A program made the position numbers and the translations under genes. The notes under the pieces are model-generated. The model worked only from the letters and a program-made list of their open reading frames with translations, did no database searches and had not been told where the DNA came from. Positions 17,763-34,541 of a DNA stretch of 64,000 bases are shown piece by piece. Source of the DNA: an uncultured Chthonomonadaceae bacterium (lineage in GTDB: Bacteria > Armatimonadota > Chthonomonadetes > Chthonomonadales > CAJBBX01). Position 1 is the stretch's first letter. Every line of letters begins with the position of its first letter. Where the stretch lies: positions 266 through 64,265 of the forward strand of contig CAYSDM010000024.1 in assembly GCA_964429855.1 (NCBI GenBank), given 5' to 3'.

Positions 17763-19676
17763 GTGAGGAGATGCGAACCGCGTTTTCGATTCGCAGCGGG
17801 TGCGCTTATTGTCATCGCTCTCAGCCTGATGGCTTCGACAGCGAAGGCGGATACGCTGACTCCGGTGCGCCTGCAGGTAGACGGCAAAGATATCTCCCTG
17901 AAAGTACAGCCCCTCTTTGATGGACGCGAGGTCTATTTGCCGCTTGAGGCGTTACGCGCCTTTGGAATCTCCTGGTCTGTCCTGCGACGCGAGGAGAGTG
18001 TCACTCTCACCTTTCCCGACGGCATCTCCTCTGAATTTGCGCTGGCGCACCCCCGGCATCAGCCGATGCTTCCCCTTTCCACACTGGTAAACGCTCTCAA
18101 TCTCAAAGCGCAGGTGGAGAACGGCGTCTGCAGCGTTCGGCTGCCCCGAACGGAATCAAGGCGCGAAGCCGGTTCCTCCAGCCGGATTCAGCGATGGGGA
18201 GCCGTTCCTCCGCAATCTCCCCCCCCCTCTACACAGTCAGAGTACCGAAAGAACGAGACGGCGCGCACCGGAAGCTCAGGGATCAGCGCAAAGCAGCCAT
18301 CTGATATTCAGAAGGGCGAATCGCTCGAAAACTTCACCACGCGCCCGACCGAAAACCGACCGAAGAACACGGCGCAAACAGACAGGCAGTCAGAACCGCC
18401 GGTCGCTCCCACCTCTACCGCCCGTTTAACGGCGCACGCAGGCTCCTCCTCCCCCGTGGTGTCACGGACTCTTGCGGAGAAGCCGACAATCCCTGTCCGT
18501 CAGGATCGCGAGGTCAATCCTGCTCCCGCCGTCCCACCTCGACAGAACGGCGCGCCTCCGGTACAGATTGCGGCATCTGACGGAAACGGGGAGCGTATGC
18601 AGGCTCCTCAGTCGCTGGACGGACTCGGCTCCTACTTCCAGAGAGTCTTCGAGAACGCGCAGGAGCGGAAGCCGCCTGCGGCCGCGACGAAACCGGCTCC
18701 CATACTGACCGCTATTCAAGATGTCATTCTGGAGCCGATGGGCGATGACCGCGCCAGACTGCGGATCGTGACCGGTGGGCGCGTGGGAGTCAGCGTTCGG
18801 TTTCTACGCCAGCCGACGCGACTGGCGATAGATTTGCCCAATACGCGCCTCGATTCTGAAGCGCGCTCCTGGAATGTGAACCATCCCCTTCTGTCGGAGA
18901 TTCGCGCCCGGACAGGCGAAACGCCCAACATTACGCGCCTGGAACTGAATCTCTCCAAACTGATCAGCTACAGTCTGGTCTCCTCAGGTCAGGACGGCGT
19001 GATATTCAATCTGACCCTGCCGCGCAACGCCGGACAACCGATCCAGGATCTGGTGGTGGTGGTGGATCCGGGACACGGCGGCTCTTCCACCGGATGCAGC
19101 TGGCCCGTCGGCAGCCAGCGCGTCTATGAAAAGCATCTGGCGCTCTCAATGGCGAAAAAGCTGCGGGAGATCATGGAGGAGGCGGGTATAAACGTAATCA
19201 TGACGCGCACGGAGGATGTGGATGTCAGCCTTTCCGCGCGTCCCGCCATCGCCAGCGATAATAACGCCCATCTTTTTATCAGCCTGCATATTGACGACTG
19301 CCGAATTCCCAACTCCGCCTCTGGAACCACCGTATACTATCATAAGAGCGAGCCGAGCAGCCGCACGCTGGCGCACTCCATCATAGAACGGATCGCAATG
19401 GTCAGCGGTCTGCCCAGCCGGGGAGCGCGCTCTGATACCGTCCTCTATGCCAGCGGTCTGGCGGTTCTGCGCGAGAGCGTAACTCCGGCAGTTTTAATTG
19501 AAGTCGGGTATATTAACCATTCAACGGATCGCGCAAAGCTCATGGACTCCGGATTTCAACAGCGTGTCGCGCAGGCCATCTTCGACGGAATTCGCGGCTA
19601 TGTGGAGAGCGCGTTGCCGGAACGCCGCTTCTCCCCCATTGCCCGCGAGACAGAACAGAGCGACTCTCCGCGCTGA
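17763..19676 (+). CDS. N-acetylmuramoyl-L-alanine amidase (Amidase_3) with Cu-amine-oxidase-N-like and AMIN-like domains
   Basis: VVVVDPGHGG, LFISLHID, GTTVYYH, AVLIEVGYINH. N-terminal LQVDGKDISLKVQPLFDGREVYLPLEAL, then a long Pro/Ser-rich linker. Confidence 0.9.
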   Translation: MRRCEPRFRFAAGALIVIALSLMASTAKADTLTPVRLQVDGKDISLKVQPLFDGREVYLPLEALRAFGISWSVLRREESVTLTFPDGISSEFALAHPRHQPMLPLSTLVNALNLKAQVENGVCSVRLPRTESRREAGSSSRIQRWGAVPPQSPPPSTQSEYRKNETARTGSSGISAKQPSDIQKGESLENFTTRPTENRPKNTAQTDRQSEPPVAPTSTARLTAHAGSSSPVVSRTLAEKPTIPVRQDREVNPAPAVPPRQNGAPPVQIAASDGNGERMQAPQSLDGLGSYFQRVFENAQERKPPAAATKPAPILTAIQDVILEPMGDDRARLRIVTGGRVGVSVRFLRQPTRLAIDLPNTRLDSEARSWNVNHPLLSEIRARTGETPNITRLELNLSKLISYSLVSSGQDGVIFNLTLPRNAGQPIQDLVVVVDPGHGGSSTGCSWPVGSQRVYEKHLALSMAKKLREIMEEAGINVIMTRTEDVDVSLSARPAIASDNNAHLFISLHIDDCRIPNSASGTTVYYHKSEPSSRTLAHSIIERIAMVSGLPSRGARSDTVLYASGLAVLRESVTPAVLIEVGYINHSTDRAKLMDSGFQQRVAQAIFDGIRGYVESALPERRFSPIARETEQSDSPR

Positions 19677-19687
19677 GAACCGAATCT

Positions 19688-20230
19688 ATGCGACGCCCGT
19701 TACCGATTCTGATACTATCGCTGCTGATCCTCTTCGGCGGAGGACTGGGCTTCTGGTACGCCAGTTCCCGTCCGCCACAGCCCCCTACGCCCCCGACACC
19801 CGTTCAGAAGGGCGAAGTCGAGATCACTCGCCCCGGACAGACCGGAAATGATGTCACGCTCAAGCCGGAGAAGCGGCAGATTCCCCCCGGCAGCAGCCAG
19901 ATCGCGCAGACACTCGAAGCCCTCTTCGAGACCGCGCAGGACAATAAGGGAACCAGCGCCTTTCCGAAAGGCGTGAAGCTGCACAGCGTCAAGATCGAAA
20001 ACGGGGTCGCCACAATAGACCTCAGCGCAGACTTTCAGGGAGTTAATCAGCAGGGAGACACAGGGGAATCGCTGGCGTATAACGCGCTGCGAAAAGCGCT
20101 GGCGCAGTTCCCCGAGGTCGAGAAGATGCGGGTTCTCGTGGACGGCAAACCTTTCGAAGGCGAACACAGCGGAGCATGGATGGATATTCCGGTACGCGAC
20201 CCCAGCACGGCGTCGGGAAGCAATCCCTGA
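19688..20230 (+). CDS. GerMN domain protein
   Basis: N-terminal TM, then LEALFE....FPKGVKLHSVKIENGVATIDLSADF...ALRKALAQFPEVEKMRVLVDGKPF. Located next to an amidase gene. Confidence 0.7.
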   Translation: MRRPLPILILSLLILFGGGLGFWYASSRPPQPPTPPTPVQKGEVEITRPGQTGNDVTLKPEKRQIPPGSSQIAQTLEALFETAQDNKGTSAFPKGVKLHSVKIENGVATIDLSADFQGVNQQGDTGESLAYNALRKALAQFPEVEKMRVLVDGKPFEGEHSGAWMDIPVRDPSTASGSNP

Positions 20231-21075
20231 TGCCGGAAGCGCGTCCCATCGGGATATTCGATTCAGGGGTTGGCGGTCTGACGGTAGCAGGCGCGCTGCT
20301 GCGACGCCACTCCCGCCTTCCGATTCTCTATGTGGCGGATCAGGCGCATGTTCCCTATGGCGGTCGTCCGCTGGAAGAGATTCGCGGCTTTGCGACCGCC
20401 ATCAGCGCGTTTCTGGCGCGGCAAAACTGCCGCGCCATTCTTATGGCGTGCAACATCTCTTCGGCAACCGCGCTGCCCTCCGTCTCGCAGTCTCTCTCCC
20501 CGCTTCCAGTTCATGGGATGATCGCCCCGGCTGTCCGCCGCGCGCTGCAATCGCTGGCAGTGTCGCAATCCGAAAATGCGCCCCGGATCGGCGTTCTAGC
20601 GACCGCCGGAACGGTGCAGAGCGGAGCCTACGCCGTCGCGCTGCACTCCCTGAACAGGCGTTGTCAGGTGACGCAGGTTCCCTGTCCGAAGTTCGTTCCG
20701 CTGGTGGAAGCGGGAGAGATAGAGAGCGCGGCGGCGCGGGAAGCTGCCTGCGAATACCTGACTTTGCTGGCAGAGTCGCGCTGTCAAACCGTAATCCTCG
20801 GCTGTACACACTACCCTTACCTGCTTCCCACGCTCCAGAGAGTTGCAGCAGACCTCTTTCCGTCGCCGGTCACCTTCATTGACCCGGCGGAGGCGCTTGC
20901 CGACGCTCTGCCAATCCCTATGGATCCCGACGACATCTCATCTCCTCTGCGCCTGCTGCTGACGACCGGCGATCCGGAGCATTTCCGTCGTCAGATACCC
21001 CGTTTCCTTCCGGATGTCTCCTGCGAGGTGCGCGCCGCCCGCTGGCAAACGGACGGATCACTGCAAATTGCCTGA
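20230..21075 (+). CDS. murI: Glutamate racemase
   Basis: IGIFDSGVGGLTV. Catalytic Cys motifs ILMACNISSA and VILGCTHYP. ATG 20230 overlaps the GerMN stop (TGATG). Confidence 0.9.
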   Translation: MPEARPIGIFDSGVGGLTVAGALLRRHSRLPILYVADQAHVPYGGRPLEEIRGFATAISAFLARQNCRAILMACNISSATALPSVSQSLSPLPVHGMIAPAVRRALQSLAVSQSENAPRIGVLATAGTVQSGAYAVALHSLNRRCQVTQVPCPKFVPLVEAGEIESAAAREAACEYLTLLAESRCQTVILGCTHYPYLLPTLQRVAADLFPSPVTFIDPAEALADALPIPMDPDDISSPLRLLLTTGDPEHFRRQIPRFLPDVSCEVRAARWQTDGSLQIA

Positions 21076-21418: not shown

Positions 21419-22918
21419 GTGAGTCTCATGTTTACCTGCCGAGTCTGTGGACGTTCTATAGCGGAGCCAAACCCGGAGAATCGCTACTGCCCCTACTGTG
21501 GAACCGCGTTCGTCCTCTCCTGCACCAATGAGCTTTGTGGAAACCGCGCGGATGGCATCGTCGTCCGCCGCAGCGCGACCTGCGGACAGTGCGGCGCGCT
21601 CTACCGCTATGCTCCCTCCAGCGGACTGCCGGTCCTTGTGCGTCACCTTGGACCGTTTCTTCCCCCGGAAGAGTCTGCGTCCGTGGCGGCCCAAACCGAA
21701 TCGCCCGCATTTCTCCAGGACCTTCTGCCAGCAAGCGGCAATCCTTTCAGCGATTCCGCCCTGCTCTCGCAGCAGCCTCCCGACATCTCCATCCCCGAAA
21801 AAGAGGCGGATTTTGCGGTCAATACGCGCCTGCACGATGTCGAAGCGCGGCATGGACGCATCTATCTGGTTCCTCAAAACGGGATGGTACAGGCGCTGGA
21901 TTACGAGTCCCTGACCCGCCTCAATTTCTGGGCGGGAGAGGTGCTGCCAAACTGGGTTCCCACTAATCCGCAGCCGGTAAAACTTCAGGTCTCTGAAACC
22001 ATCGTCTATGTGTTGCATCGGGGAGCCATCAGCGGTTACGACGCGGGCAACGGCAAAGCGATCTTCTCCCTCACCGTCAACGACCTGCGCGATATCCACT
22101 GCCTGCTCGTGCGTAACCGGCTGCTGGTGGTCGGCACGGCGGGAGATCAGAAAGAGTATGCGCGGCTTTTCGACATCGAACATCTGTGCGATGCCCGCAC
22201 TCCCGCCAAACGCCCGCTATGGGAGGGCGAGGTGCGCGGAAGCATCGCGCCGGGACAGGCGCTTCCAGCGAAACGACTGGGCGTTTTTGGCGGCTACTTC
22301 TACCTGATCTCCCGCAGCAGCCAGCTTCTTGCCCTGCCGATGGAGGGCGGCGGCTTTGAAACGATGTATGACAACTGGGGATCGCGCTCCATCCACGCCT
22401 GGACGATGAATGAGAGAGCAGGCATACTGTTCCTCTCCCCGCCCACCCCGCAGGGCTACTACTCGCTGGTGACCTTCACGCCGGGAACCGGAAAACCGGT
22501 CTCCAACGAGACTCAGTTGATGACGGTTCGCCCGCGCGAAAAGCCGCGCAGCGTCCTGCTCTGGGATGAAGACATCCTGCTGCTGGATGAGGCGGGAAGC
22601 CTGCAGAGACTTCCCCTGATCAATCCCAACAACCCGACGGCGAACTGGGGCGCGCTGACCGGTCTGCAGAATATTGCCGACCTCTATCCGCCTCTCCTGA
22701 TTCCCTGGGGCAAGCAGATGCACTTCGTTATGCAGGTAAAGGAGCAGCTATCTCACTCTTTCCGCCATGTTCCGCTGAGCAAGGCGTCTACCGGCTTCAG
22801 CGCCAAACTGCCGGCATCTCCCTCGGCGCGAGACGATGTGCGAGCTATCTACTGTGGTCCGAATATCTACGTGTGTAATATGACCAATGGGAACATTAAA
22901 CGACTACCTCTTCGCTAG
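21419..22918 (+). CDS. Double zinc-ribbon + PQQ/BamB-like beta-propeller protein (cluster gene A)
   Basis: CRVCG..14..CPYCG and CTNELCG..13..CGQCG at the N-terminus. Repeated strand patterns follow: IYLVPQNGMVQALD, VYVLHRGAISGYDAGNGK, FYLISRSSQLLALP, ILLLDEAGSLQRLP, IYVCNMTNGNIKRLP. The start could instead be ATG 21428. Confidence 0.7.
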   Translation: MSLMFTCRVCGRSIAEPNPENRYCPYCGTAFVLSCTNELCGNRADGIVVRRSATCGQCGALYRYAPSSGLPVLVRHLGPFLPPEESASVAAQTESPAFLQDLLPASGNPFSDSALLSQQPPDISIPEKEADFAVNTRLHDVEARHGRIYLVPQNGMVQALDYESLTRLNFWAGEVLPNWVPTNPQPVKLQVSETIVYVLHRGAISGYDAGNGKAIFSLTVNDLRDIHCLLVRNRLLVVGTAGDQKEYARLFDIEHLCDARTPAKRPLWEGEVRGSIAPGQALPAKRLGVFGGYFYLISRSSQLLALPMEGGGFETMYDNWGSRSIHAWTMNERAGILFLSPPTPQGYYSLVTFTPGTGKPVSNETQLMTVRPREKPRSVLLWDEDILLLDEAGSLQRLPLINPNNPTANWGALTGLQNIADLYPPLLIPWGKQMHFVMQVKEQLSHSFRHVPLSKASTGFSAKLPASPSARDDVRAIYCGPNIYVCNMTNGNIKRLPLR

Positions 22919-24464
22919 GCGCGTAAGCCGCGCCCGATCCGGCTCTCCCGGACGTCGGACACTGCTGTTTCCGGCGCTGATGATGCTCCTTTCACTGGGA
23001 CTGCTCTCCCCGCAGTCTGCTCTTTCGCAGACGCCTTATCGGGGCGACTTTTTCGATGTCTATCAGGAGATCACGCGCCAGCTTGCCACTCAATACAGGA
23101 TGGTCTGCAACCGACGTCTGCATGTGGTGCTGGTGCTGGACGTGTCGCGCAGCACGCAGCAAAACGGGATGGAGATCCGGTTCGGTCAGATATGGTCGAA
23201 GATGTGGGATAACTTCCTGCGCGATGGCGATATGGTGACGCTGCTTCCCTTTGCGTCCAATTCGCTGCCGACATCCGGTCCCTTCAAGAAATCCGACAAG
23301 AGCGGTTTTGACTCGGCGGTGGCGAAAGCGAAGAAAGACACTGCGCAGGATACCGGAACCGCGCTCTACACCGTGCAGCAGTCTGCACTGACAGAGGCGA
23401 AGCGCATTGCGGAGTCGGATAAAGACCGCGCCGTACTGGTGCTGATGTTCACCGATCTCGACGGTCCCAATGTCACGGCGAACACTCTGACTCAGGAGAA
23501 CAATGTCCGGGACACGGTCATCCCTGAGTTGATGAAAGAGTTCACGGTAGGCAGCCCGAAGAAGGAGCCGGCGCAGCCCCGCCCCACCCCGACGCCCGGT
23601 CAGCCTGCGCCCGGTCAACAGGGAACGCCTCCGCCCCCGGGTCTGCTGTTGATGCACAAGAAGTTCTACTCCATCCAGTCGGATGATCGAAAAGGCGCGT
23701 CTCCGCTCTGGCTTCACTCCGCGATGGAGTCGAAATGGCAGCAGAAGAAGGAGCAGGCGGTTTCACGCAAGATCGAGTCGCGTCCTACGGAGCCTCCTCC
23801 TCCTCCGGAGCCTCAGCCTGACCGCCGCCCGATCATTCGTCTGCTGGGTCTTCTGATCGGCTTTCTTGGATTTGCGTTTCTGCCGTTCCTGCGCTTCCGC
23901 GTGAAGGTGGTTCCCTCCGGCATCTCTCCCATCGGCGACACCGATAAAAAGGTCTCCGCCTATGGCAAGGTCACCGTCGCCGCGTGCAACACCGCCGAAA
24001 CGCCGGAGCCGCGCGATCTGTGGCTGCCCCTCCCCTACAGTAGCGCGACCCCGGAGCCGCTTATCACCATTAAAGGGCTGAAACCCGGCTCCTGCGTGGT
24101 TGAGAAGATTGGCGGTCATATGCTGACACCAGACGGAGAGGCTGCCAGCACCGTAGATATTCCCTACGGCGAGTCGGAGACGATTCGTGTCGGCATACGT
24201 CCCAATGAACTCTATCCCCTGCAGATTGTTCCGGGTTCCTGGATGGAGGGGAAACTGATCCCGCTTCTGATGACGATGCTCTTCTTCCTGTTCGGCTTTA
24301 TCGTGCTGGTGATCGGTCTGGCGATGAAAGCGCCGGAGCAGCCGGTGGCTCCAGAGCCGGAGCCTGCGATCACCGATGTCTGTCGCGCCACCGGCGGCAG
24401 CCTGATGGAGAGCGGCAGGATCGTTGTCTCGGAACTCAAATCATCGTCTGAAAATCGGGCATAA
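22887..24464 (+). CDS. vWA (MIDAS) domain membrane protein (cluster gene B)
   Basis: Signal/anchor RRTLLFPALMMLLSLGLLSPQSALSQ. MIDAS DxSxS in VVLVLDVSRST, then GTALY and VLMFTDLDG. Pro-rich linkers, and TM segments IIRLLGLLIGFLGFAFLPFL and LIPLLMTMLFFLFGFIVLVIGLAM. The start is uncertain and overlaps gene A by 32 nt. Confidence 0.7.
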   Translation: MGTLNDYLFARRVSRARSGSPGRRTLLFPALMMLLSLGLLSPQSALSQTPYRGDFFDVYQEITRQLATQYRMVCNRRLHVVLVLDVSRSTQQNGMEIRFGQIWSKMWDNFLRDGDMVTLLPFASNSLPTSGPFKKSDKSGFDSAVAKAKKDTAQDTGTALYTVQQSALTEAKRIAESDKDRAVLVLMFTDLDGPNVTANTLTQENNVRDTVIPELMKEFTVGSPKKEPAQPRPTPTPGQPAPGQQGTPPPPGLLLMHKKFYSIQSDDRKGASPLWLHSAMESKWQQKKEQAVSRKIESRPTEPPPPPEPQPDRRPIIRLLGLLIGFLGFAFLPFLRFRVKVVPSGISPIGDTDKKVSAYGKVTVAACNTAETPEPRDLWLPLPYSSATPEPLITIKGLKPGSCVVEKIGGHMLTPDGEAASTVDIPYGESETIRVGIRPNELYPLQIVPGSWMEGKLIPLLMTMLFFLFGFIVLVIGLAMKAPEQPVAPEPEPAITDVCRATGGSLMESGRIVVSELKSSSENRA

Positions 24465-24506: not shown

Positions 24507-24824
24507 ATGGCAGGACTTTTCGGAGATATGATGGCTCTGATCTGGATCGCGCTGATGGTGATCGGAATGATCTTTCTGGTCTACATGGTGCTTTTCTGGA
24601 TCTACTTCGGGATCTGTAAACTGAACGGACCGGTCGCAATCCGGATTGCGTGGACAGTCGGCGTTCTCAGCCTGCTGATCGTGCTCGCTTTCATCTTTCC
24701 CTTCCAGGCTCCCTATTTCAATCCGCTCAGCGGGGATATAGGTTCGCTGGTCAACATGGCGATTGTGGCGGTGATCTCGATGTTCTTTCTGATTATCGTC
24801 TGGGTGACCAAACCGAGTCTGTAA
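24507..24824 (+). CDS. Small polytopic (3-4 TM) membrane protein (cluster gene C)
   Basis: 105 aa, almost entirely hydrophobic helices. GGAGGAG SD 6 nt upstream. Confidence 0.6.
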   Translation: MAGLFGDMMALIWIALMVIGMIFLVYMVLFWIYFGICKLNGPVAIRIAWTVGVLSLLIVLAFIFPFQAPYFNPLSGDIGSLVNMAIVAVISMFFLIIVWVTKPSL

Positions 24825-24927: not shown

Positions 24928-27900
24928 ATGCTGCGTCCTGCACTGGTAATTGCCCTCGGCGGCACCGGCACGAACATCGTGCTCCGTCTGCGCGAACGCT
25001 TCCATATGATGTATGGAACTCCCGATCCGGAGGGCGTGCGCTATATTTTCGTAGATACCGACACGAAAAATAATCTGAGCCGGAGAGAGCTTCAGGGCTA
25101 TGCGGGTCGTACTATCGGGATCGCGGTCGGTCCCAACACCCTGAACGATCTGCAGATCCCCAACTCTCCTACGTCGCAGCGGCTTCGACTGGACGACTGG
25201 TTTGACCCCGACCTTCGCGGGCGGTTGACCAATCAGAGCTTTCAGGCGGGCGTTGGCGGGGTGCGTATGTACGGGCGGCTGGTGCTGCTGGCGGCGGATC
25301 AACTGCGGCAGCTTACGGAACTGATCAGCAATGACATTCAAGCGCTTCGCCGTAACGCCGCCGGAAACGATCCCGGCTCCCTGCACATCTTCGTCGCATC
25401 CTCCTCTGGAGGCGGAACCGGCAGCGGCTCCTTCATTGACATGGGCTATCTGACCCGGCTGATACTGCAGGACTTAGCGGTTCCGGGAGGCGTCTGCGAA
25501 CGTGAGGGGCTGCTGGCAATCGCCGTGCCGACCCTCGTTCCCGCGCCGCAGCAGGCGCGCAACTCCGCCGCCATGCTCTCCGAAATGGACTACTTCTGCG
25601 AGCCGGGAAATATCTTCCAGGCGGTCTATATTGATCGCCCCCTGCCGGAGAGCATTGGACGGGAAGCCCCCTACGACTATATTCTGCTCTCCTCCCCGAC
25701 CCAGGGAGATCAGGTGCTCAGCGAAAATCCCGTTCAGGCGATGGGGCTTCTGGAGAGCAAAATGGCGGACTATATCTTCATCCGCCTGACCGAACCCGGA
25801 CGCCTCGGCGGTCTGCTGCGCGATGTCCGCACCAACTGGCAGACCACTCCCCGCGACAACCGGGGCTATCCCAACCGCTTTATGACCTTCGGCGTCAGCA
25901 TCCGTCAGTTCCCCGTCGGTCTGGTGGAGATGCTCGGTTACCGTTACGCCATCCGCAACTTCACCTGGGGATGGCTGAAGCGACCCCGCGAGGGCGACTC
26001 CATTCTGGACGACTCCGAACTGGCAACCAGACCGGATATACAGCAGGCGTACACCAACGATCTGGCGGCTCTGCGCAAGCTAATCGGTCTGCCATCGGTG
26101 CATGAGCAGACCGGCAAGCAGCCCCGCGATGCCGTGAACGACGCGCTCTACGCCGAACTGATCCAGACCCAGCAGGAGGCGCTGGAGGCCTCTCTTCGCA
26201 GCCGCGCCAACGACGGCAAGGTGGACGATCTGTTCCAGTACTCCGGTGCGGATCAGCCCGTAGCTCCCGGCTCTCCCGGTTATGTTGCTGGAACGATCAG
26301 CCGTAACGCCACGCGCCTGATGAATCCCAATGAGCCTGCCAGTCTGTTCAATCGCATCCGCGATTACCTGTATGCGGCAGCATTTGATCGAACGCGAGGA
26401 CCGCGCTATGCCCAGCGACTGGCGCGCGACCTGGTGGAGGAGATGCGCCGCGAAGAAGAGTTCATGGATGAAGTGCTGCGCGCCGCCGGAATGGTGGGAA
26501 CCGGCGGAACCGGCGGAGGCGGTCTCAACCGCGCACAGAAGGTGCGCCGCGATTTTCTGCTGCTATTCTGGGCAGACACGGCGGCAAAGCGGGAGCGCGG
26601 CGGCAGTGGCGGCGGAGCCAGCGGCCCCTATGCCAACCGACGGTTTGAGACCAGCCTGTTGGAATCCAAGAAGTTTATCTATGGCACGCTGCGGGATAAG
26701 CTTCTGGTCGGCGGTGAAAACCTGGAAGGACGCTTCAAGCGACTCTCCGCCTATATCGAAGCCTGGGCGAATCAGGCGGAGATGTCGGCGGCGGACAATG
26801 AGAAGCTGGTCGAGAACCTGCCCTACGGCACGATCTATCCGAAAGACCGCATTGAAGAGAAGTGGAAGAACCTGACCCCGACCGTCTCGCAGGATAGTCT
26901 GGAGCCGCTTCAGCGTCAAACCCGCAGCCAGCAGTTCGGCGTGGATATGCCCAAAGACCCACGTGGCGCGCCGGACTTTGCCCCGTTTGAGAACATCGGC
27001 GAACAGATTCGCGCCGCGCTGCGATCAGAGGCGGGAGAGTCCGCCAGCTCGATCTACGGAGAATCGGTGCTGCGCCTGATCGCCGAGATCAACGAAGGAA
27101 ACCTGGAGCCGACATGCCAGCAGATGGCGTCGGAGAGCCGCCCGCTGCTGAATCTGCGGCTGGACGCGCCGGGATACGCCGAACTGCTCAACAGCCGCAC
27201 CTCCTTCGGTCAGCCGACCTACCTCTGGTTCGCGATGGCAAGCCCGGAAGCGGATTTCAACTCCTATCAGGCGTTCTGGACAAGCACCCTGCGCGCCGCG
27301 CAGGGGATCACCCCGGTGGTGCGCGCCAATCCCGACGCCCCCATCCGCGACGACCTGAAGATCAAAAATGGCAGCATTGCAGCCCTGATATTCGTCCGAG
27401 CCGCCTTCCCCTCGCGCATTATCAACCAGTATGAGCAGGATGATCGCTGGGGACTGCTCTTCCCGCCCAATGCGACGACGATCACCACGCCCTTCACGCA
27501 GACCGGCATCCTCCTGCCGCCCCCGCTTGCCGTGTTGGACGAGGCGCGCGTACTGCTGATGCTCGGCGAGACTCTGCGAGTCATGCCCAACGACCCGAAC
27601 GAGTTTGCGACCGAACCCAAAATCACCTGGGGCGGCGCGGAGCACACGTTCGAGTATCAGCTCGGTCCGTATGAAGTGGAGCGAATGCGCTACCCGAAGA
27701 ACGACTTTGAGCGCGCCGCCTATCTTCTGGCTGTCAACGAGAAGGCTCTCAGCGCGCTGCGAAAAGCTCTCAACCTGCGCGCCGGAGATATGAACCAGCG
27801 AGGCATTATCGCGGAGAAGATCGTTCAGGAGATACACAAACTCAACGACCGTATCCTTAACGCCCCCGGCGGCGCGATGCAGGGCTACTACGACAGCCTC

Positions 27901-28122
27901 GATCTTGGCGGCATCAAGTATCCGGAATCGCGCAAGATGCTGTTCGAAGGCGCAAAAAAACTCGGCATTGACCTGTTCATCATAGACCCCAGTCTGCACC
28001 CCTGGGCGAAACCAAGCGATGCCGACAGTCTCTGGCGATGCAACAAGTGCAACTATGTCCTGGGAGCCGAGGTGCCGGATATGCAGGGCGAGTGTCCTAA
28101 CTGCGGTCATCCTAACCGTTAG
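24928..28122 (+). CDS. Large tubulin/FtsZ-superfamily GTPase-like protein with C-terminal zinc ribbon (cluster gene D)
   Basis: T1-like VIALGGTGTNIV, FVDTD, and the tubulin signature in VASSSGGGTGSGSFIDMGYL. C-terminus CNKCN..16..CPNCG. AAGGAG SD at 24915-24920 supports ATG 24928 over the track's TTG 24910. Confidence 0.85.
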   Translation: MLRPALVIALGGTGTNIVLRLRERFHMMYGTPDPEGVRYIFVDTDTKNNLSRRELQGYAGRTIGIAVGPNTLNDLQIPNSPTSQRLRLDDWFDPDLRGRLTNQSFQAGVGGVRMYGRLVLLAADQLRQLTELISNDIQALRRNAAGNDPGSLHIFVASSSGGGTGSGSFIDMGYLTRLILQDLAVPGGVCEREGLLAIAVPTLVPAPQQARNSAAMLSEMDYFCEPGNIFQAVYIDRPLPESIGREAPYDYILLSSPTQGDQVLSENPVQAMGLLESKMADYIFIRLTEPGRLGGLLRDVRTNWQTTPRDNRGYPNRFMTFGVSIRQFPVGLVEMLGYRYAIRNFTWGWLKRPREGDSILDDSELATRPDIQQAYTNDLAALRKLIGLPSVHEQTGKQPRDAVNDALYAELIQTQQEALEASLRSRANDGKVDDLFQYSGADQPVAPGSPGYVAGTISRNATRLMNPNEPASLFNRIRDYLYAAAFDRTRGPRYAQRLARDLVEEMRREEEFMDEVLRAAGMVGTGGTGGGGLNRAQKVRRDFLLLFWADTAAKRERGGSGGGASGPYANRRFETSLLESKKFIYGTLRDKLLVGGENLEGRFKRLSAYIEAWANQAEMSAADNEKLVENLPYGTIYPKDRIEEKWKNLTPTVSQDSLEPLQRQTRSQQFGVDMPKDPRGAPDFAPFENIGEQIRAALRSEAGESASSIYGESVLRLIAEINEGNLEPTCQQMASESRPLLNLRLDAPGYAELLNSRTSFGQPTYLWFAMASPEADFNSYQAFWTSTLRAAQGITPVVRANPDAPIRDDLKIKNGSIAALIFVRAAFPSRIINQYEQDDRWGLLFPPNATTITTPFTQTGILLPPPLAVLDEARVLLMLGETLRVMPNDPNEFATEPKITWGGAEHTFEYQLGPYEVERMRYPKNDFERAAYLLAVNEKALSALRKALNLRAGDMNQRGIIAEKIVQEIHKLNDRILNAPGGAMQGYYDSLDLGGIKYPESRKMLFEGAKKLGIDLFIIDPSLHPWAKPSDADSLWRCNKCNYVLGAEVPDMQGECPNCGHPNR

Positions 28123-28201: not shown

Positions 28202-29107
28202 GTGCGCTACTACAAACAGGACTGGGTGGCTATGGGAGTGAAACCGGGAGGCGGCTCGACCGGCAGCATTCCGCTGGCAGCGCTCTTTTCCGTGATTCTG
28301 CTGGCGGGGCTGGGGGTTCTGGCGTTTTTCCTGGGCAACTTCAGCGGATTTGGCGGCGGCAATCCCGGCGATGCGACTGTCTTCATAGACTGCCAGTGGC
28401 AGATTAATCTGGCGGATGGACGGCAGGTACAGACTGGAGGAAGCGGTTCCGGCACGATCATCCATCCCAACGGCAAAGTCATCACCAATCACCATGTCGT
28501 CTTCATGAACAGCCTGAAGACACAGGAAGGCGAGATACCGCTCGATCAGGAGGTCGAGGCGTCGAAGATCACCGTCTACCTTCGCAGCGGAACCAACGAG
28601 GTGAAGAAGATGGAGGCGCAGGTCTTAGATACCGACCGCACCGGAAAGACCTGGACGGGCGCATCGCTGGACGATATGTGGCACGACTGGGCAGTTCTTC
28701 AGATCAAGAATCCCCCGCCCGATCTGCCCTATGTACGCATCGGGGACAGTCGCAAGGTGGGGCAGAACAACAAGATCACTGTCTTCGGCTTTCCGCTGGG
28801 ACAGAAATACCAGGTCGAAGAGGGCAAAGGTCCAGCGATGACGGTGGTTCCCGGCGTGGTGAAGCGGATCGTTCCGCCCAACCCCAACACCTTCTTCTAT
28901 TTCGTTCACAGCGCGAATGTGCAGCCCGGCAACAGCGGCGGTCCGCTCATCAACGACGCCTCGAAGGAGCAGGTCGGAATCAATACACGGATTTCCGTCA
29001 TTCGCAGCATGGAGGGAGCCTCCAGCGATGAACACTATACGATCCCAACCCACAAACTGGAAGAGGTCTGGAAGAAGCACGCGAAGTCACAGGCGTTCGG
29101 CAAGTAG
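28202..29107 (+). CDS. Membrane-anchored trypsin-like (S1/HtrA-type catalytic domain) serine protease (cluster gene E)
   Basis: N-terminus MRYYKQDW + TM. Complete triad context: His in GKVITNHHVV, Asp in HDWAVLQI, Ser in GNSGGPLIN. GTG start with AGGAG SD. Confidence 0.85.
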   Translation: MRYYKQDWVAMGVKPGGGSTGSIPLAALFSVILLAGLGVLAFFLGNFSGFGGGNPGDATVFIDCQWQINLADGRQVQTGGSGSGTIIHPNGKVITNHHVVFMNSLKTQEGEIPLDQEVEASKITVYLRSGTNEVKKMEAQVLDTDRTGKTWTGASLDDMWHDWAVLQIKNPPPDLPYVRIGDSRKVGQNNKITVFGFPLGQKYQVEEGKGPAMTVVPGVVKRIVPPNPNTFFYFVHSANVQPGNSGGPLINDASKEQVGINTRISVIRSMEGASSDEHYTIPTHKLEEVWKKHAKSQAFGK

Positions 29108-29139: not shown

Positions 29140-29985
29140 ATGCGATACTATAAACAGGACTGGGCCGTGTCCGGTCCGGTCAAAGAGACCAGCGGCGGAA
29201 GCATTCCGCTCGCCATCCTATTCTCTTTGATCATCTTTATTGCGCTGGGAGTGCTGGCTTTCCTCTTCGGCGGCGCGCTTCCGTCTATCGGGCGCGAAGA
29301 CCTGAAGAATGTGGTGCTCATCATCAGCACGCAGTATCCGGGAGAACAGACGCGATTTTTCACCTCCGGCGTGCTGATTAAGTCGGATGGGACTCTCATC
29401 ACGACCTACAAGAACCTGAACCGGGCAGATCAGGGCGGTAATCTGGTCAAACCAGAGAAGATCGTCGTGATCCTTCCGCCGGAGAAGCAGGGAGACCAGC
29501 CGCGCGAATTTGAAGCGCAGGCGCTGGATGCCAATAAGTCGCCGGAAGAGGCGCTCTCCAGCGATCTGGAGAAGATGTGGCACGACTGGGAACTGGTGAA
29601 GATCAAGAACCCGCCGAAAGGACTGCGCGCCCTGCCCATCGGCGACAGCGCCAGCATCAAGCCGCAGGATAAGGTCACGGTCGCCGGTCTCTCGCAGGCG
29701 CAGCAGCCCATGCGATACGAAGGCATCAATATCGCCGACGGGCAGATCACCAAAGTGGTGCCGCCGAACAATCCCCGCAACTCCATCTACTTTGCGCACG
29801 ATGTCAAGGTGGATCGCGGCAGTTCGGGCAGCGCGGTGGTGGACCAGCGCACCGGACAGATGATCGGTCTGCATATCAAAACCGATACCGACGAGCGAAC
29901 CGGACGTTCGGAGTACTTCGCCGTCCCGTCGCGCAAGCTCGCGGACGCCTGGCGCGCCGCGGGGCTGGATAACTATCCGAAGTAG
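29140..29985 (+). CDS. Paralogous membrane-anchored trypsin-like protein lacking the catalytic His (probable pseudo-protease; cluster gene F)
   Basis: Same MRYYKQDW + TM N-terminus. The aligned His position reads GTLITTYKNL, Asp is kept (HDWELVKI), and the Ser context is GSSGSAVV. Confidence 0.75.
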   Translation: MRYYKQDWAVSGPVKETSGGSIPLAILFSLIIFIALGVLAFLFGGALPSIGREDLKNVVLIISTQYPGEQTRFFTSGVLIKSDGTLITTYKNLNRADQGGNLVKPEKIVVILPPEKQGDQPREFEAQALDANKSPEEALSSDLEKMWHDWELVKIKNPPKGLRALPIGDSASIKPQDKVTVAGLSQAQQPMRYEGINIADGQITKVVPPNNPRNSIYFAHDVKVDRGSSGSAVVDQRTGQMIGLHIKTDTDERTGRSEYFAVPSRKLADAWRAAGLDNYPK

Positions 29986-29999
29986 CAGGAGACGCACCT

Positions 30000-32474
30000 A
30001 TGAACTGCATGGTCTGTCAGCGACAATTCGACCCCAACGATCCCGATATCTGTTACTGTCCGCGCTGCGGATGGTCGCTGGGACAGTTGAGCGTTGCGCT
30101 GCATCCCGAAACCCTGATTCTTGCCGGTCCGCGTCCGGTTCCACTGACCCTGATCTGCCGTAATACCGGATTCGGGAAGCTGAAGTGCGAACTGGATCGC
30201 GACAGCCTGCCGCCGGGCGTTACGCTCGCGCAGGGCAGCGAGTCCTCGCTGCAACTCACCTCGCAGCCTCAGGAGATTCGCCTGCTGGTAGACCCGCGAA
30301 ATCTGGAGAAAAATCTGTCGGTGCTGCCGGTGGTGCTCCACTCGTATGATCGGCGCGGACAGCATCGGATGGATTTTCGTCCGGCGTCTCTGGAAGCGGG
30401 GCGCGTCGCGCAGCCCTGCGCCCTTCCTATTCAGAGAATGCGCTTCGGTCCGGTGCAGATTTTTCAGGAGATGCTGCTGTTTCGCAGCCTTCAGCGCAAA
30501 CAGAAACTTCAGGTGCAGAATCTGGGCGATGTGGAGGTGGTGCTGGCATTGACGGCGCCCTCCGGCTTTCAGCTTCGTTATGGCAGCCAGCCTCCCGCCG
30601 GATCGTTCACCATGCGTTTGAGCGGAACGCCGGTTCCAGAAGAGATCACGGTCGAAGCGACCACAACCGGCGCGCCCGTTCAGCGCGGAGGCGCGCCGCT
30701 GATTCTGCGCGTGGAGGTGGCGGATCTGCCGGATGACAGCCGGGATATTCAACTGCTCTGGATTCCGGAAGAGACGGTCGAGACCCAGCGTAAGCGATGG
30801 ATCATCGGCATTGACTTTGGCACGGCCAAGACCGCCATCTTCTACAGCGACTGCAACCTGCCCCAGCCGCAGCCCCGCCCCGCCAGATGGCTGATGCCGA
30901 CCGGTGATGTTCGCATCAAAGTTCCGTCGGTCATCATGTATCCGTACACCAGCCCGCTTCCGCCGCGCTGCGGTTGGGATGTGCCGGAGACCGCCGAGGT
31001 GGACGGGCGCGATGTGGTGGTGCGCTCCATTAAGAAGCGGCTGACGGACGAGACGGCGATTGAATACGAGTTGTCGGACGGAACCGTTCTGACGGTGGAT
31101 CAGGTGGTCGAACACTATCTGCGGTTTATTGTGGGCAAGTTCCGGCAGCAGGATGCTTTTCGGGGCGAAGGCAACCCGTTTGACAACGCGCAGGTAGTGT
31201 TGAGCCTGCCGGTGCGCGATGATGAGGAGCAGTACGAGGAGCAGAAGCGGCGCACGATCAATGCGGCAGTGCGTGTCGGGTTAAATGAAGACCAGATTCT
31301 CTGCTATACGGAGCCGGAGTGCGCGGCGGTAGACTTTCTGCGTCGGCGGCAGGAGCTAGGCATGACGGTGCAGCAGGGCGACCTGCTGTGCGTCTTCGAC
31401 TGCGGGGCGGGAACGACGGATATCTGCCTGCTTCAGCTTCACTACAGCGGCGGCGAACTCAGCTTCACCCGACGCGCGCTGGCGGGATTCCCCTTCGGCG
31501 GAGACGTGATTGACGAACTGCTGACCCAGTATGTGCTGGATGAGTGGCTGGAGAAGGGCAAGTTCCACGAGTATAACGCCGACTTCTCAATGTTCCATCT
31601 CAAGGGCGAAGCGCAGGCGCGCACACGGCGGTTCCTGCTCTCTGCGCTGCGCCGGGTCAAGGAGCGTCTCGCGTTTGTAGACCCGGATCAGCTTCAGCCC
31701 AACAACGAGCAGAGCGTCTCCTTCAGCTACAACAACGATCCGGCCGACGCGATCCCGATCACCTGGTCTCTGATCGAGACGCTGTTCCGTCCCTATGTGC
31801 AGAAGATTCTCAGCGAGGGCTTTGATCCCAATGATATGATTCCGGACTGGACGAAAGAGCAGCCGCAGGGGCGTCCGGTGGGAGTGAAGCTGCCTTCGCT
31901 CAACTCCGTGCTGTGGCGCGAGGGGCTGGATGCCGTGGACATCCGCTGGCTCTGTCTGACGGGAGGAAGCAGTTTTATCCCGTTCCTGGTGAAGATGCTG
32001 CAGAATATGTTCCCGCACGCCGCGCTGGTTCCTCCGGTCACCATGATCCCGGATATGCTGCGTGAGCAGGATACGCCGATGACCCTCAATGTGGCGCAGG
32101 GCGCGGCGGCGCGCCCCCTCTACCGGGTCGAGGGACAGCTTCCGCTGGACTACCTGCTTCAGTATAGCTCCAGCAGCGGAATGACCGAACCGACCGTTGT
32201 GCTGACCAAAGGCGGCGCGCCGGGCAAGATCGGACCGCAGCAGGCGTACCGGCTGATGGCGGGTGATACCGGCACGCTCCGGCTGATCGCGCAGGTTGGC
32301 GGAGAGCGTGGAACCGTCTACAAGAAAATCCTGAAAAACCCGTATGAGGACAAGCATATCAGCGTGCTGGCGCAGGTCGAATACGGACGTGATATGAAGG
32401 TCTATCTGACCATCTCCTTCGGGGTAGACAACGACGTGATACCTATTCTGGAGAAGATCGCCGTCGTCGAATAG
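30000..32474 (+). CDS. Hsp70/actin-fold ATPase with N-terminal zinc ribbon and two beta-sandwich-like domains (cluster gene G)
   Basis: CMVCQ..11..CYCPRCG. Phosphate-1 IIGIDFGTAKTAIFYS, phosphate-2 VFDCGAGTTDICLLQL, adenosine motif LCLTGGSSFIPFLVKML. Short beta-rich C-terminus with no helical lid. Confidence 0.85.
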   Translation: MNCMVCQRQFDPNDPDICYCPRCGWSLGQLSVALHPETLILAGPRPVPLTLICRNTGFGKLKCELDRDSLPPGVTLAQGSESSLQLTSQPQEIRLLVDPRNLEKNLSVLPVVLHSYDRRGQHRMDFRPASLEAGRVAQPCALPIQRMRFGPVQIFQEMLLFRSLQRKQKLQVQNLGDVEVVLALTAPSGFQLRYGSQPPAGSFTMRLSGTPVPEEITVEATTTGAPVQRGGAPLILRVEVADLPDDSRDIQLLWIPEETVETQRKRWIIGIDFGTAKTAIFYSDCNLPQPQPRPARWLMPTGDVRIKVPSVIMYPYTSPLPPRCGWDVPETAEVDGRDVVVRSIKKRLTDETAIEYELSDGTVLTVDQVVEHYLRFIVGKFRQQDAFRGEGNPFDNAQVVLSLPVRDDEEQYEEQKRRTINAAVRVGLNEDQILCYTEPECAAVDFLRRRQELGMTVQQGDLLCVFDCGAGTTDICLLQLHYSGGELSFTRRALAGFPFGGDVIDELLTQYVLDEWLEKGKFHEYNADFSMFHLKGEAQARTRRFLLSALRRVKERLAFVDPDQLQPNNEQSVSFSYNNDPADAIPITWSLIETLFRPYVQKILSEGFDPNDMIPDWTKEQPQGRPVGVKLPSLNSVLWREGLDAVDIRWLCLTGGSSFIPFLVKMLQNMFPHAALVPPVTMIPDMLREQDTPMTLNVAQGAAARPLYRVEGQLPLDYLLQYSSSSGMTEPTVVLTKGGAPGKIGPQQAYRLMAGDTGTLRLIAQVGGERGTVYKKILKNPYEDKHISVLAQVEYGRDMKVYLTISFGVDNDVIPILEKIAVVE

Positions 32475-32508
32475 TCTACTGTGCGAACCATGACGCATGA
32501 GGGATCCC

Positions 32509-34524
32509 ATGAAGATGACCCCCTATTCCATGCCATGTTTAAGCGTCAGGCGACTGCGCCTGCTGCCGATTCTTGCGCTGCTGCTGCTGTCGCTGCCGTT
32601 AGACGCGCAGTCAGTCTATACCCCCTGGCAGAAGGGGAACGGAAAGATACAACCGACCGGTGACAGGCAGGCGATAATACAGCCGCCGAAGGCCGCCGGG
32701 GAGTATGCCTTCATTCAGTTGAACGAACTCAAGGGAAAGAGCTGGAGCGTTCAGGCTAAAGTCATTCTGGAGGGTGTCGTTCCGACGAATCTGCCGAAAA
32801 ATGCCATCACTCCGATCTTTCAGCTAAACAATAAGATGGCTGAACCGGGTAAGTGGAACTACCAGATGGCGCTGAGTCTGGACTGGGGGCAGGATGGCAA
32901 ATCCACGCCGCGCATCGCGCTCCCTCAGGGTCTGAGACGCGACTTTCAGCCGATCCAACTGCCTCAGGTCTTCCATGTTCGCGTCCAGCGCAAAGAAGAT
33001 CAGGTAACCATCGCGCTGCTGAAAGAGAGCAGCGAGCCGCCGCTGAGCGAAGTCACTCTTCCCGCCACCGGAGATACCCTCTACATGACATGGGGTTCGC
33101 TGGGGACCGATACGAAACACACCACCTTTGAATGGCGGATCAACGATCTGGAGATCAAGCAGGGAGAAGCCGCCAGCCCCGGCGTGACTCCCCAACCCGT
33201 ACAGAATCAAGGGGGGGCGGCGGAGGGGCAGCCACAGGCGGAGGATCCCCGCGTGAGCAAGGCGACACAGCAGGCGGGAGGCGCGCTCGTGCTGGGCGCG
33301 CTTGCGCTGCTGGCGTCGCTGCTGGCAATTGTGCTGACCGTCGTGACCTTTGTGCTGAACCGCGGAAAAGGAGCCAAAGATTCCGGGGAACTGCCCGGCA
33401 AAATCACCGCCATCGAAACGCGGGTGAATACGCTCAACAGTCAGATGGCGACCAAACAGGATATCCAGAACAGCCGGGAGCAGATCACGAAAGACCTGAC
33501 AGAGAGGGTGCAGCAGGGTTTCGTAAAACTGGATGATCGGATGAAGGCGGCGGAGGCGGCGGTTCAGTCCGCCAGCTCCTCCGCGCCGCCGTCCTCCAGT
33601 GATGGACTGGACTATCGTGTGCAAAGCTGTGAGGCGCAACTGCAGCAGATCGCCGGGCAGATTCAGAATCAGAACAGCGACATCAGCAACCTTCGCGCCA
33701 CGCTGAATACGCTGATGGATAAGATCACTCTCCTGAATCGCGCGCTCCAGCAGATGGAGCAGGCGCAGCGCAACGCCCAGCAGGTTCAGACGACGGCTGC
33801 CGTCTCCCCCTCCACGCCAACTGCGAACGCCGGGACCGTGGAACCCGGTCTGGAAGATCGTTATCATACGACCCATCCGGCGACAACGCCAGCGGTCACC
33901 ATCATCCAGAGCGGGCCGAGCGGGACGCCGCCCGCCGATAACGGCGGAACGGTTGTCTCCTCCACGCCGCCTGCATCCTCTAACGCTCCTCTCTGGGAGA
34001 CACAGTGGAGGCAGCTCCGGCAGAGCCTCAACGCCCATCGCGCTTCGGTAACCGTCGAGAGCTTCAGCAAAGACCTGGATATGCTGGAGACCTACTTCAA
34101 GACGCTGATCGAAAAGTGGGAGACGCTCAAGCCGCCCGCCGAAGACGCGCATATGTGGGATGAGTGGCTGTTCAGTAATCTGGACTACCATCTCTATCAG
34201 GCGCCGCGCCTGACCTCGCTCGGAGAGGTTTCGCCGGAGATTCGAGGCGCGCTGGAGCGGATGCGCTCCGTGATCGAACAGGCGCAGGAGGCGCGCAAAG
34301 CGCAGTTGCGCGAGTGGGAACTGGAACGAATCGAGGGCGTTCCCGGCAAAGACCGCGCCACCGCCTATGTCATGGAAGCCGACCCGGAGAACCCGCCGGA
34401 GCCGACCACCGATCCGCGAAAGGACTACACCTTCTCGCATATCGTTCCCGGCAGAGGCGGATACCGGTTCCGGGGGCGCGTGCTGCGGAAAACGCACGCC
34501 GTTTTCTATCAGTTCAAGGGATAG
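32509..34524 (+). CDS. Single-pass receptor-like protein: signal peptide, beta-rich ectodomain, TM, long coiled coil, C-terminal domain (cluster gene H)
   Basis: Signal peptide [52 protein letters not shown]-rich heptad region ([24 protein letters not shown] ... [29 protein letters not shown]). GAGGGA SD supports ATG 32509. Confidence 0.7.
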
Positions 34525-34541
34525 TCGAAGGGAGTGGCTCT

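Follow-up and report, generated by a model that had tools for sequence, protein, structure and literature searches.

A typical FtsZl1 (Tubulin_2) protein encoded in a conserved eight-gene cluster of Armatimonadota

We analysed a 64,000-nucleotide stretch of an Armatimonadota genome of the order Chthonomonadales (contig CAYSDM010000024.1; hereafter the window) and, within it, the gene at 24928-28122, which a first-pass annotation made from the letters alone had described as a giant tubulin/FtsZ-like protein with a terminal zinc ribbon. The results showed that this is a real gene, that its product is a typical member of the FtsZ-like 1 (FtsZl1) family, Pfam PF13809, and that it stands fourth in a run of eight closely spaced genes with a common orientation. 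On balance we think it probable that the protein serves as a guanosine triphosphate (GTP)-binding assembly scaffold for a membrane-spanning complex.

24928..28122, plus strand: FtsZl1/Tubulin_2 gene, 1064 amino acids (aa), stop codon included (open reading frame list, PF13809, full-length orthologues)

The open reading frame (ORF) ends at 28122 on the plus strand and can begin at either TTG 24910 or ATG 24928. Alignment with the N-termini of 13 homologues identified ATG 24928 as the true start, in agreement with the coordinates of the first-pass annotation, and gives a product of 1064 aa. The Tubulin_2 ('Tubulin like') model PF13809 matched residues 6-334 with E = 2e-36 and 126.4 bits against a cut-off of 27, covering model positions 1-344 of 356, and the same domain was carried by 14/14 homologues. 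These homologues were full-length at 25-50% identity in a protein collection search, and it is the Tubulin_2 score together with such full-length orthologues that establishes the gene as real. Full-length orthologues were found only in Armatimonadota loci (labelled L001-L008), of which L004 is the Chthonomonas calidirosea locus, and a copy with 95% identity was present in a Chthonomonadales metagenome-assembled genome. The minus-strand ORF at 27025-28110 and other long antisense ORFs were rejected as high-GC (guanine-cytosine) artefacts over a conserved coding gene.

The FtsZl1 family was defined by Makarova & Koonin 2010 (Biol Direct 5:33; PMC2875224), and its equivalence to PF13809 is given in PMC9871819. 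In the 2010 description, members of the family carry inserts of their own between T1 and T4 and cannot be aligned past helix H5; they have a long helical region followed by a mostly helical C-terminal domain, and their predicted operons include a vWA-domain protein and membrane proteins (PMC2875224). The protein of the window resembles this description in its N-terminal FtsZ-like domain with GGGTGSG, its T1-T4 inserts and its 126-bit match to the model, and likewise in having no alignable T6-H7/T7 region or FtsZ C-terminal domain. It also has the expected length of ~1050 aa, the helical middle region followed by a C-terminal domain, and the vWA gene immediately upstream among membrane-protein neighbours. 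Unlike the published description, the middle region of the Armatimonadota proteins was modelled as a compact helical body and not as an extended coiled coil. A search of every protein of a 1.84-billion-sequence representative library returned 1572 clusters of relatives at E <= 1e-3, mostly 900-1200 aa long and matching the query over residues 1 to ~350. The usual length was ~1050 aa, with a median of 1061 aa among 154 sampled family sequences, so the size of the protein, which had been called unusual, is ordinary for the family.

24928..25929, plus strand: N-terminal FtsZ/tubulin-like GTPase domain, residues 1-334 (Pfam 6-334, Foldseek, predicted local distance difference test (pLDDT) ~85-95)

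The AlphaFold2 model, built on a 14-sequence alignment, had a mean pLDDT of 85 and a predicted template modelling score (pTM) of 0.75 over the full length, with the T1 and T4 blocks at 89-93. A Foldseek search of the PDB with this model gave 330 hits at E <= 1e-3. Each of the first 50 was FtsZ, CetZ2, TubZ, alpha/beta-tubulin or BtubA, and the best was FtsZ 5zue (E = 5e-6; target-normalised TM-score 0.50-0.54 over ~340 aligned columns). In the BFVD viral library the N-terminal domain alone was matched, to phage FtsZ, tubulin and PhuZ. As modelled, residues 1-334 are an FtsZ-like fold, and the earlier assignment of the protein to the tubulin/FtsZ type therefore held, with FtsZ, CetZ, TubZ and tubulin as the top structural matches. 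With FtsZ, tubulin, CetZ, TubZ and PhuZ the protein shares the predicted fold of residues 1 to ~340 and the T1, T2 (DTD against NTD), T3-like and T4 loops. The GTPase-like part had been put at about 200 aa; the family domain is longer, at ~334 aa, and the shorter figure is close to the truth only for direct sequence alignment to FtsZ, which stops near residue 180.

The nucleotide loops of the domain lie as follows.

24946..24981, plus strand: T1-like loop VIALGGTGTNIV, residues 7-18 (aligned to FtsZ VIGVGGGGGNAV by hhalign)
25048..25062, plus strand: T2-like FVDTD, residues 41-45 (aligned to FtsZ AVNTD by hhalign)
25084..25290, plus strand: family-specific insert from T2 to T3/H3, ~residues 53-121 (gap opposite FtsZ in hhalign, conserved columns)
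25399..25452, plus strand: T4 tubulin signature SSSGGGTGSGSFIDMGYL, residues 158-175 (aligned to FtsZ AAGMGGGTGTGAA by hhalign)

All the motifs quoted in the first-pass annotation were present, and T1, the NTD of T2 and T4 were matched by profile-profile alignment to E. coli FtsZ. T1 was paired as VIALGGTGTN / VIGVGGGGGN and T4 as SSSGGGTGSG / AGMGGGTGTG, the GGGTGSG of the window protein being residues 161-167. Within the insert lie W91, which is conserved, and a T3-like segment, FxxGVxGVRMYGRL (residues 105-118). Among 69 diverse family members G11, G14, G108, G163 and E219 were invariant, and conservation was at least 90% at G12, T13, D43, W91, R113, G162, T164 and G165 and also at G167, D171, N212, P248, G322 and P329. 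This pattern of conservation argues for real nucleotide binding. The putative nucleotide-binding loops T1, T2, T3-like and T4 are all intact at the level of sequence.

A fold of this kind could belong to a cytomotive filament former, that is, to a divergent FtsZ/TubZ-like polymer with a polymerisation-activated GTPase that would serve shape, division or envelope constriction. The FtsZ-like fold across ~340 aligned columns and the conservation of all the GTP-contacting loops T1-T4 are in its favour, and a candidate for the T7 loop can be pointed out.

25789..25857, plus strand: candidate T7/H8-like segment TEPGRLGGLLRDVRTNWQTTPRD, residues 288-310 (by-eye comparison with FtsZ TRPGLMNVDFADVRT)

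Past an H7-like helix (268-288) the protein reads TEPGRLGGLLRDVRTNW, which by eye is like E. coli FtsZ TRPGLMNVDFADVRTVM with the spacing PG-x7-DVRT, and the whole element, TEPG-x7-DVRT, resembles FtsZ T7/H8. Across 107 family segments N303 was conserved in 62% and D310 in 75%, and position 299 or 302 was often acidic (D in 28% and 36%, respectively). The 'PG' of the candidate was not conserved even among orthologues and the length of the loop was variable, both of which count against it. When hhalign was run with an 88-sequence alignment of the N-terminal domain at relaxed settings, the alignment reached residue 358 with zero confidence past T4/H5, and this extension was rejected as a means of placing T6 or T7 because it had no confidence beyond ~residue 180-220.

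Further evidence also stands against a filament of the canonical type. The scores of the canonical Tubulin/FtsZ model PF00091 (21.6 bits against 33) and of the NCBIfam ftsZ equivalog TIGR00065 (12.1 bits against 295) were both below their cut-offs. After residue 330 the model, as read by DSSP, shows the end of one long strand (318-327) and then an all-helical region, and the four-stranded beta-sheet of the FtsZ/tubulin C-terminal domain is not evident there. The protein is unlike canonical filament formers also in its ~70-residue insert, in having no recognisable activation domain and a T7 that is a candidate, and in its 730 extra residues with a zinc ribbon. Cell-wall genes (AmiC, GerM and MurI) stand next to the cluster in the window, which speaks for a filament, but these neighbours are not kept in L002-L008. 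Canonical FtsZ, moreover, co-occurs with the FtsZl1 family (Makarova & Koonin, PMC2875224). We regard a cytomotive filament as improbable.

The remainder of the protein is made up of the following parts.

25975..27207, plus strand: mostly alpha-helical middle region, ~residues 350-760 (DSSP on the model; no match to a solved structure)
26395-26409, plus strand: subfamily motif RGPRY, within the helical middle region
26497-26523, plus strand: Gly-rich disordered loop 1, GTGGTGGGG, residues 524-532
26599-26625, plus strand: Gly-rich disordered loop 2, GGSGGGASG, residues 558-566
27220..27957, plus strand: C-terminal alpha/beta region, ~residues 765-1010, with the motif RxxFPxRxI (model secondary structure; no PDB fold match)
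28039..28104, plus strand: zinc ribbon C1038-x2-C1041-x14-C1056-x2-C1059 (sequence; orthologue conservation)

The length beyond the recognisable domain is ~730 aa and not the ~850 aa first given. In the model these final 730 residues are a confidently predicted compact helical and alpha/beta body, unlike any solved fold: Foldseek with residues 345-1064 matched no solved structure (best E = 0.9). Modelled alone, the same residues had a pLDDT of 78 and a pTM of 0.51, against 0.75 for the full-length protein, and this fall once the N-terminal domain is removed points to a body that is compact and packs onto the GTPase domain. The Gly-rich stretches pointed out in the first-pass annotation are there, as low-confidence loops (pLDDT < 50 at 523-532 and 558-564) that are poorly conserved and variable among orthologues. 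Two other segments, D-x3-RGPRY-x-L (487-498) and R-x2-FP-x-R-x-I (824-835), were invariant in the orthologues and partly kept in the 69-sequence consensus, in which the orthologue-conserved R824, F827 and P828 were retained. Judged by this conservation they may mark functional sites in the non-GTPase body. RGPRY was rejected as a family-wide motif, as RGPR[YFW] occurred in 15/131 sampled sequences of at least 700 aa and a looser, position-restricted pattern in 18/101 family sequences.

The terminal zinc ribbon is present and conserved (10/14 orthologues), with a spacing of CNKCN-x13-CPNCG where x16 had been reported. Its match to the rubredoxin-like model PF21349 (RUBY_RBDX) had E = 4e-4 and 20.2 bits, under the cut-off of 26.5, and it was assigned to no specific family. 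A C-terminal zinc ribbon was found in 20/131 long family members and is a recurrent accessory of the family.

On another reading the large C-terminal part and the zinc ribbon would do the work, the protein being a non-polymerising nucleotide-gated switch or a pseudo-GTPase scaffold whose FtsZ-like domain only senses GTP/GDP or merely holds a fold. The two pTM values point to a compact single chain with the GTPase domain packed onto the body. Neither an FtsZ C-terminal domain nor a clear T7 loop is evident, and the fact that three cytoplasmic partners carry zinc ribbons hints at a defined hetero-complex; each of these would suit a switch. The strict conservation across the family of the T1/T4 glycines and of the T3-like GxxRxxGR argues instead for real nucleotide chemistry. 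It also counts against a switch that, to our knowledge, every characterised member of the superfamily (FtsZ, tubulin, TubZ, CetZ, PhuZ) self-associates. This was the least probable of the readings that we weighed.

The other seven genes of the cluster are listed below in their order in the window, the tubulin-like gene lying between the third and the fourth.

21419..22918, plus strand: 499-aa protein, two zinc ribbons at the N-terminus, probable beta-propeller (sequence; orthologues upstream in L001, L003, L005-L008)
22887..24464, plus strand: vWA membrane protein (Pfam VWA E = 3e-5, above cut-off; sequence)
24507..24824, plus strand: small 105-aa polytopic membrane protein (sequence; conserved in L001, L002, L003, L005)
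28202..29107, plus strand: trypsin-like serine protease with an N-terminal transmembrane anchor (Trypsin_2 E = 2e-21; orthologues in L001-L004, L007)
29140..29985, plus strand: paralogous trypsin-like protein with a transmembrane anchor (Trypsin_2 E = 3e-16)
30000..32474, plus strand: 824-aa Hsp70/actin-fold ATPase, zinc ribbon at the N-terminus (Pfam HSP70 E = 4.5e-6, above cut-off)
32497..34524, plus strand: membrane coiled-coil protein with signal peptide, ectodomain, transmembrane segment, coiled coil and conserved C-terminal domain (sequence)

The same gene content and order (double-zinc-ribbon protein, vWA, small membrane protein, tubulin-like, one or two trypsin-like, Hsp70-like ATPase, one or two membrane coiled-coil proteins) was recovered by tblastn and phmmer in L001-L008, although the tubulin-like proteins are 25-50% identical; several of these loci lie on contigs that are cut short, and each partner was detected in at least three of the loci but not in all. 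Spacing between the genes of the cluster ranged from a 32-nt overlap to a 103-nt gap. Terminator-like sites showed no excess inside the cluster, and the promoter and terminator scan gave nothing above chance. The spacing and the lack of a terminator excess are consistent with one operon. The GC content of the cluster equals that of its flanks, and the cluster remains intact while the flanking genes vary between genomes.

The location among membrane proteins, which the first-pass annotation had reported, was borne out by the sequences of the neighbouring genes, but neither this context nor the zinc-ribbon fusion is unusual as it had proposed. Besides the ribbons of the long family members given above, a vWA gene was the largest same-strand ORF just upstream in 31/62 wider-family loci. 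Among 53 such loci the largest downstream ORF was HSP70 in 6 and a Macro-domain protein in 5, and P-loop GTPases and second Tubulin_2 proteins held this place in 3 loci each. The HSP70-family genes that follow Tubulin_2 genes in these 6/53 loci are from other phyla, and together with the upstream vWA frequency they indicate that the vWA/tubulin-like/Hsp70 arrangement is not unique to Armatimonadota. CarboxypepD_reg/PEGA proteins also recur downstream in these loci (L009-L080), and the P-loop GTPases there are of the MMR_HSR1/Dynamin_N type. Unlike many FtsZl1 operons, the cluster of the window has no P-loop GTPase, OmpA-like protein or adjacent protein kinase; trypsin-like proteases are found in their place, along with an Hsp70-like ATPase and the double-zinc-ribbon protein.

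Large extracytoplasmic domains were predicted for three types of partner, namely the vWA protein, one or two of the proteases and the coiled-coil protein with its ectodomain. The vWA protein has a signal/transmembrane segment, an intact DxSxS metal-ion-dependent adhesion site (MIDAS) motif (DVSRS), a Pro-rich linker and two further transmembrane segments. The second trypsin-like paralogue is without the catalytic His in pairwise alignment (TTYKNL against TNHHVV of the first) and is a probable pseudo-protease. The coiled-coil protein's C-terminal domain was found once or twice downstream in L002-L004. The proteases begin with a conserved cytoplasmic tail, MRYY(K/S/Q)xDW, before the transmembrane helix, seen in the window (MRYYKQDW in the first paralogue) and in L002 3613, L003 13204 and L004 3491. 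A partner in the cytoplasm may dock on this peptide.

The 824-aa ATPase gave PDB matches to the DnaK nucleotide-binding domain and has orthologues at E ~1e-96 in L002-L004, with intact phosphate- and adenosine-binding motifs (IGIDFGTAKT, FDCGAGTTD, LTGGSSFIP). Its layout is unusual: a zinc ribbon and ~250 aa precede the ATPase domain, and no Hsp70 substrate-binding domain was recognisable. In the 499-aa protein, with orthologues of ~490 aa, the hints of PQQ_2, beta-propeller and DZR were all sub-threshold. Because DO-GTPases often carry two N-terminal zinc ribbons, we considered it as a degenerate DO-GTPase and rejected this, as it has no P-loop and weak beta-propeller hints only. Cys4 zinc ribbons thus occur on all three predicted cytoplasmic proteins, with two N-terminal in the 499-aa protein, one N-terminal in the Hsp70-like protein and one C-terminal in the tubulin-like protein, which suggests a shared interaction mode.

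This set of partners makes a biological-conflict (anti-phage or programmed-death) system of the type of Kaur, Burroughs, Iyer & Aravind 2020 the main rival to a scaffold. In such a system the tubulin and Hsp70 homologues would form assemblies dependent on nucleoside triphosphates (NTPs), the vWA domain would bind peptides, and the trypsin-like peptidases would release or activate effectors. The components of the GTPase-centric conflict systems include tubulin homologues, HSP70, a membrane vWA protein with an extracellular domain, and trypsin (Kaur et al. 2020, eLife 9:e52696, PMC7159879), and all four are combined in the cluster, the vWA protein again with a transmembrane anchor. The likeness to the GAP1-N2 DO-GTPase systems extends to the C-terminal helical extension of the tubulin homologue beside the membrane-anchored external vWA domain, and to the HSP70-family ATPase, trypsin, zinc ribbons and membrane proximity. 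The active and inactive protease paralogues recall peptidase cascades or decoys, and a cluster that stays intact while its flanking genes differ between genomes would also fit.

The defining component was not detected, however: there was no DO-GTPase, and no GTPase Pfam match or P-loop/Walker A in any cluster protein. No Pfam match to GAP1 (N2, M and C domains) or to the FNIII-repeat protein was found either, with the inclusion of such models in the library unconfirmed, and no toxic effector was recognisable in the cluster. PADLOC-DB 2.0 gave no match for the tubulin-like, vWA, double-zinc-ribbon and small membrane proteins, and the other cluster proteins gave only weak or generic trypsin, coiled-coil or Hsp70 matches. 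In the published systems tubulin and HSP70 are separate, non-overlapping themes, found in Firmicutes/Actinobacteria only (PMC7159879), whereas here they stand together in the phylum Armatimonadota. The GC content does not differ from that of the flanks, and the neighbours are housekeeping genes. A conflict system is therefore unlikely in our judgement, while it is the alternative to be taken most seriously.

The scaffold reading starts from what the analysis shows, namely the fold, the conserved motifs and the linked genes; that GTP is bound, that the protein self-assembles, what the topology is and which way the coupling runs are inferred. GTP would be bound through the T1-T4 pocket, and the GTP state would lead to self-association at the inner face of the membrane, which may or may not take the form of an FtsZ-type head-to-tail polymer with polymerisation-activated hydrolysis. 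The assembly would organise the membrane-anchored vWA and protease partners and in this way tie envelope events to the cytoplasmic nucleotide state. Outside the membrane, the complex would consist of the vWA domain, the protease domains and the coiled-coil protein's ectodomain. The Hsp70-like ATPase, a cytoplasmic partner alongside the double-zinc-ribbon protein, may assist assembly or disassembly. Such a scaffold agrees with the multicomponent membrane-remodelling system that was proposed as the role of FtsZl1 in 2010 (Makarova & Koonin, PMC2875224).

Several points weigh against this reading. The hhalign alignment to FtsZ spans residues 6-179 and the similarity ends at ~180, no Pfam match to FtsZ_C or Tubulin_C was found in the 1064-aa protein, and a T7 loop was not established by hhalign or by family conservation. 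Taken together, these leave polymerisation-coupled hydrolysis unsupported. The placing of GGGTGSG in a nucleotide pocket comes from the fold match and the alignment, and the predicted membrane topology comes from hydrophobic segments only. The process served may be remodelling, signalling or conflict. The literature searched yielded no functional or structural study of any FtsZl1 protein. Among all PDB sequences, phmmer with the protein and with the 69-sequence family profile found no solved relative, as the only matches were insignificant ones to spectrin, coiled-coil or rubrerythrin proteins and none was to tubulin/FtsZ.

The flanks of the cluster were examined in the same window. Directly upstream lies a cell-wall trio (17763-21075) of an AMIN-domain N-acetylmuramoyl-L-alanine amidase (AmiC), a GerM-like (Germane) protein and a glutamate racemase-like protein (MurI), and this adjacency was not conserved in L002-L008. 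A Ser/Thr protein kinase (12424-14472; Pkinase E = 6e-50, with generic PADLOC PD-T4-6 kinase matches) lies ~7 kb upstream of the cluster. It is followed by a HEAT-repeat protein (14504-16066), and the pair is syntenic in the close relative L001 only. In other lineages, kinases are frequently found linked to FtsZl1 genes (Makarova & Koonin, PMC2875224). On the downstream side, the ORF of an ABC-F ATPase (34314-36101) is listed with a GTG start that lies ~200 nt before the coiled-coil gene ends. The ABC-F similarity is split in L001, where the ORF begins after the upstream stop; the true start is probably further downstream than the listed GTG. The ABC-F ATPase is the sole P-loop protein near the cluster and is conserved in L001 only.

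Few branches of the tubulin/FtsZ superfamily are as divergent as FtsZl1, and the searches of the literature and of PDB sequences brought up neither a tested function nor a solved structure for it. The 1064-aa protein adds little that is new in kind to a family already described in 2010. Its additions are modest: a confidently modelled full-length architecture and a partner set specific to Armatimonadota. The eight-gene cluster is conserved and cleanly delimited, and it occurs in a phylum with a culturable relative, Chthonomonas calidirosea. The T1/T4 glycines, D299, N303, D310, the zinc-ribbon cysteines and the MRYYxxDW tail make the question of polymer or switch experimentally approachable. 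A more far-reaching version, which we hold to be improbable, is that the protein keeps a cryptic T7-like acidic element (D299, N303, D310) and polymerises on the membrane in a GTP-dependent manner, jointly with the Hsp70/actin-fold ATPase, the two making up a hitherto uncharacterised two-NTPase, membrane-spanning cytoskeletal machine of Armatimonadota that drives or gates the external vWA and protease modules. If true, this would add to FtsZ and TubZ/PhuZ a third functional type among the bacterial cytoskeletons of the tubulin superfamily.

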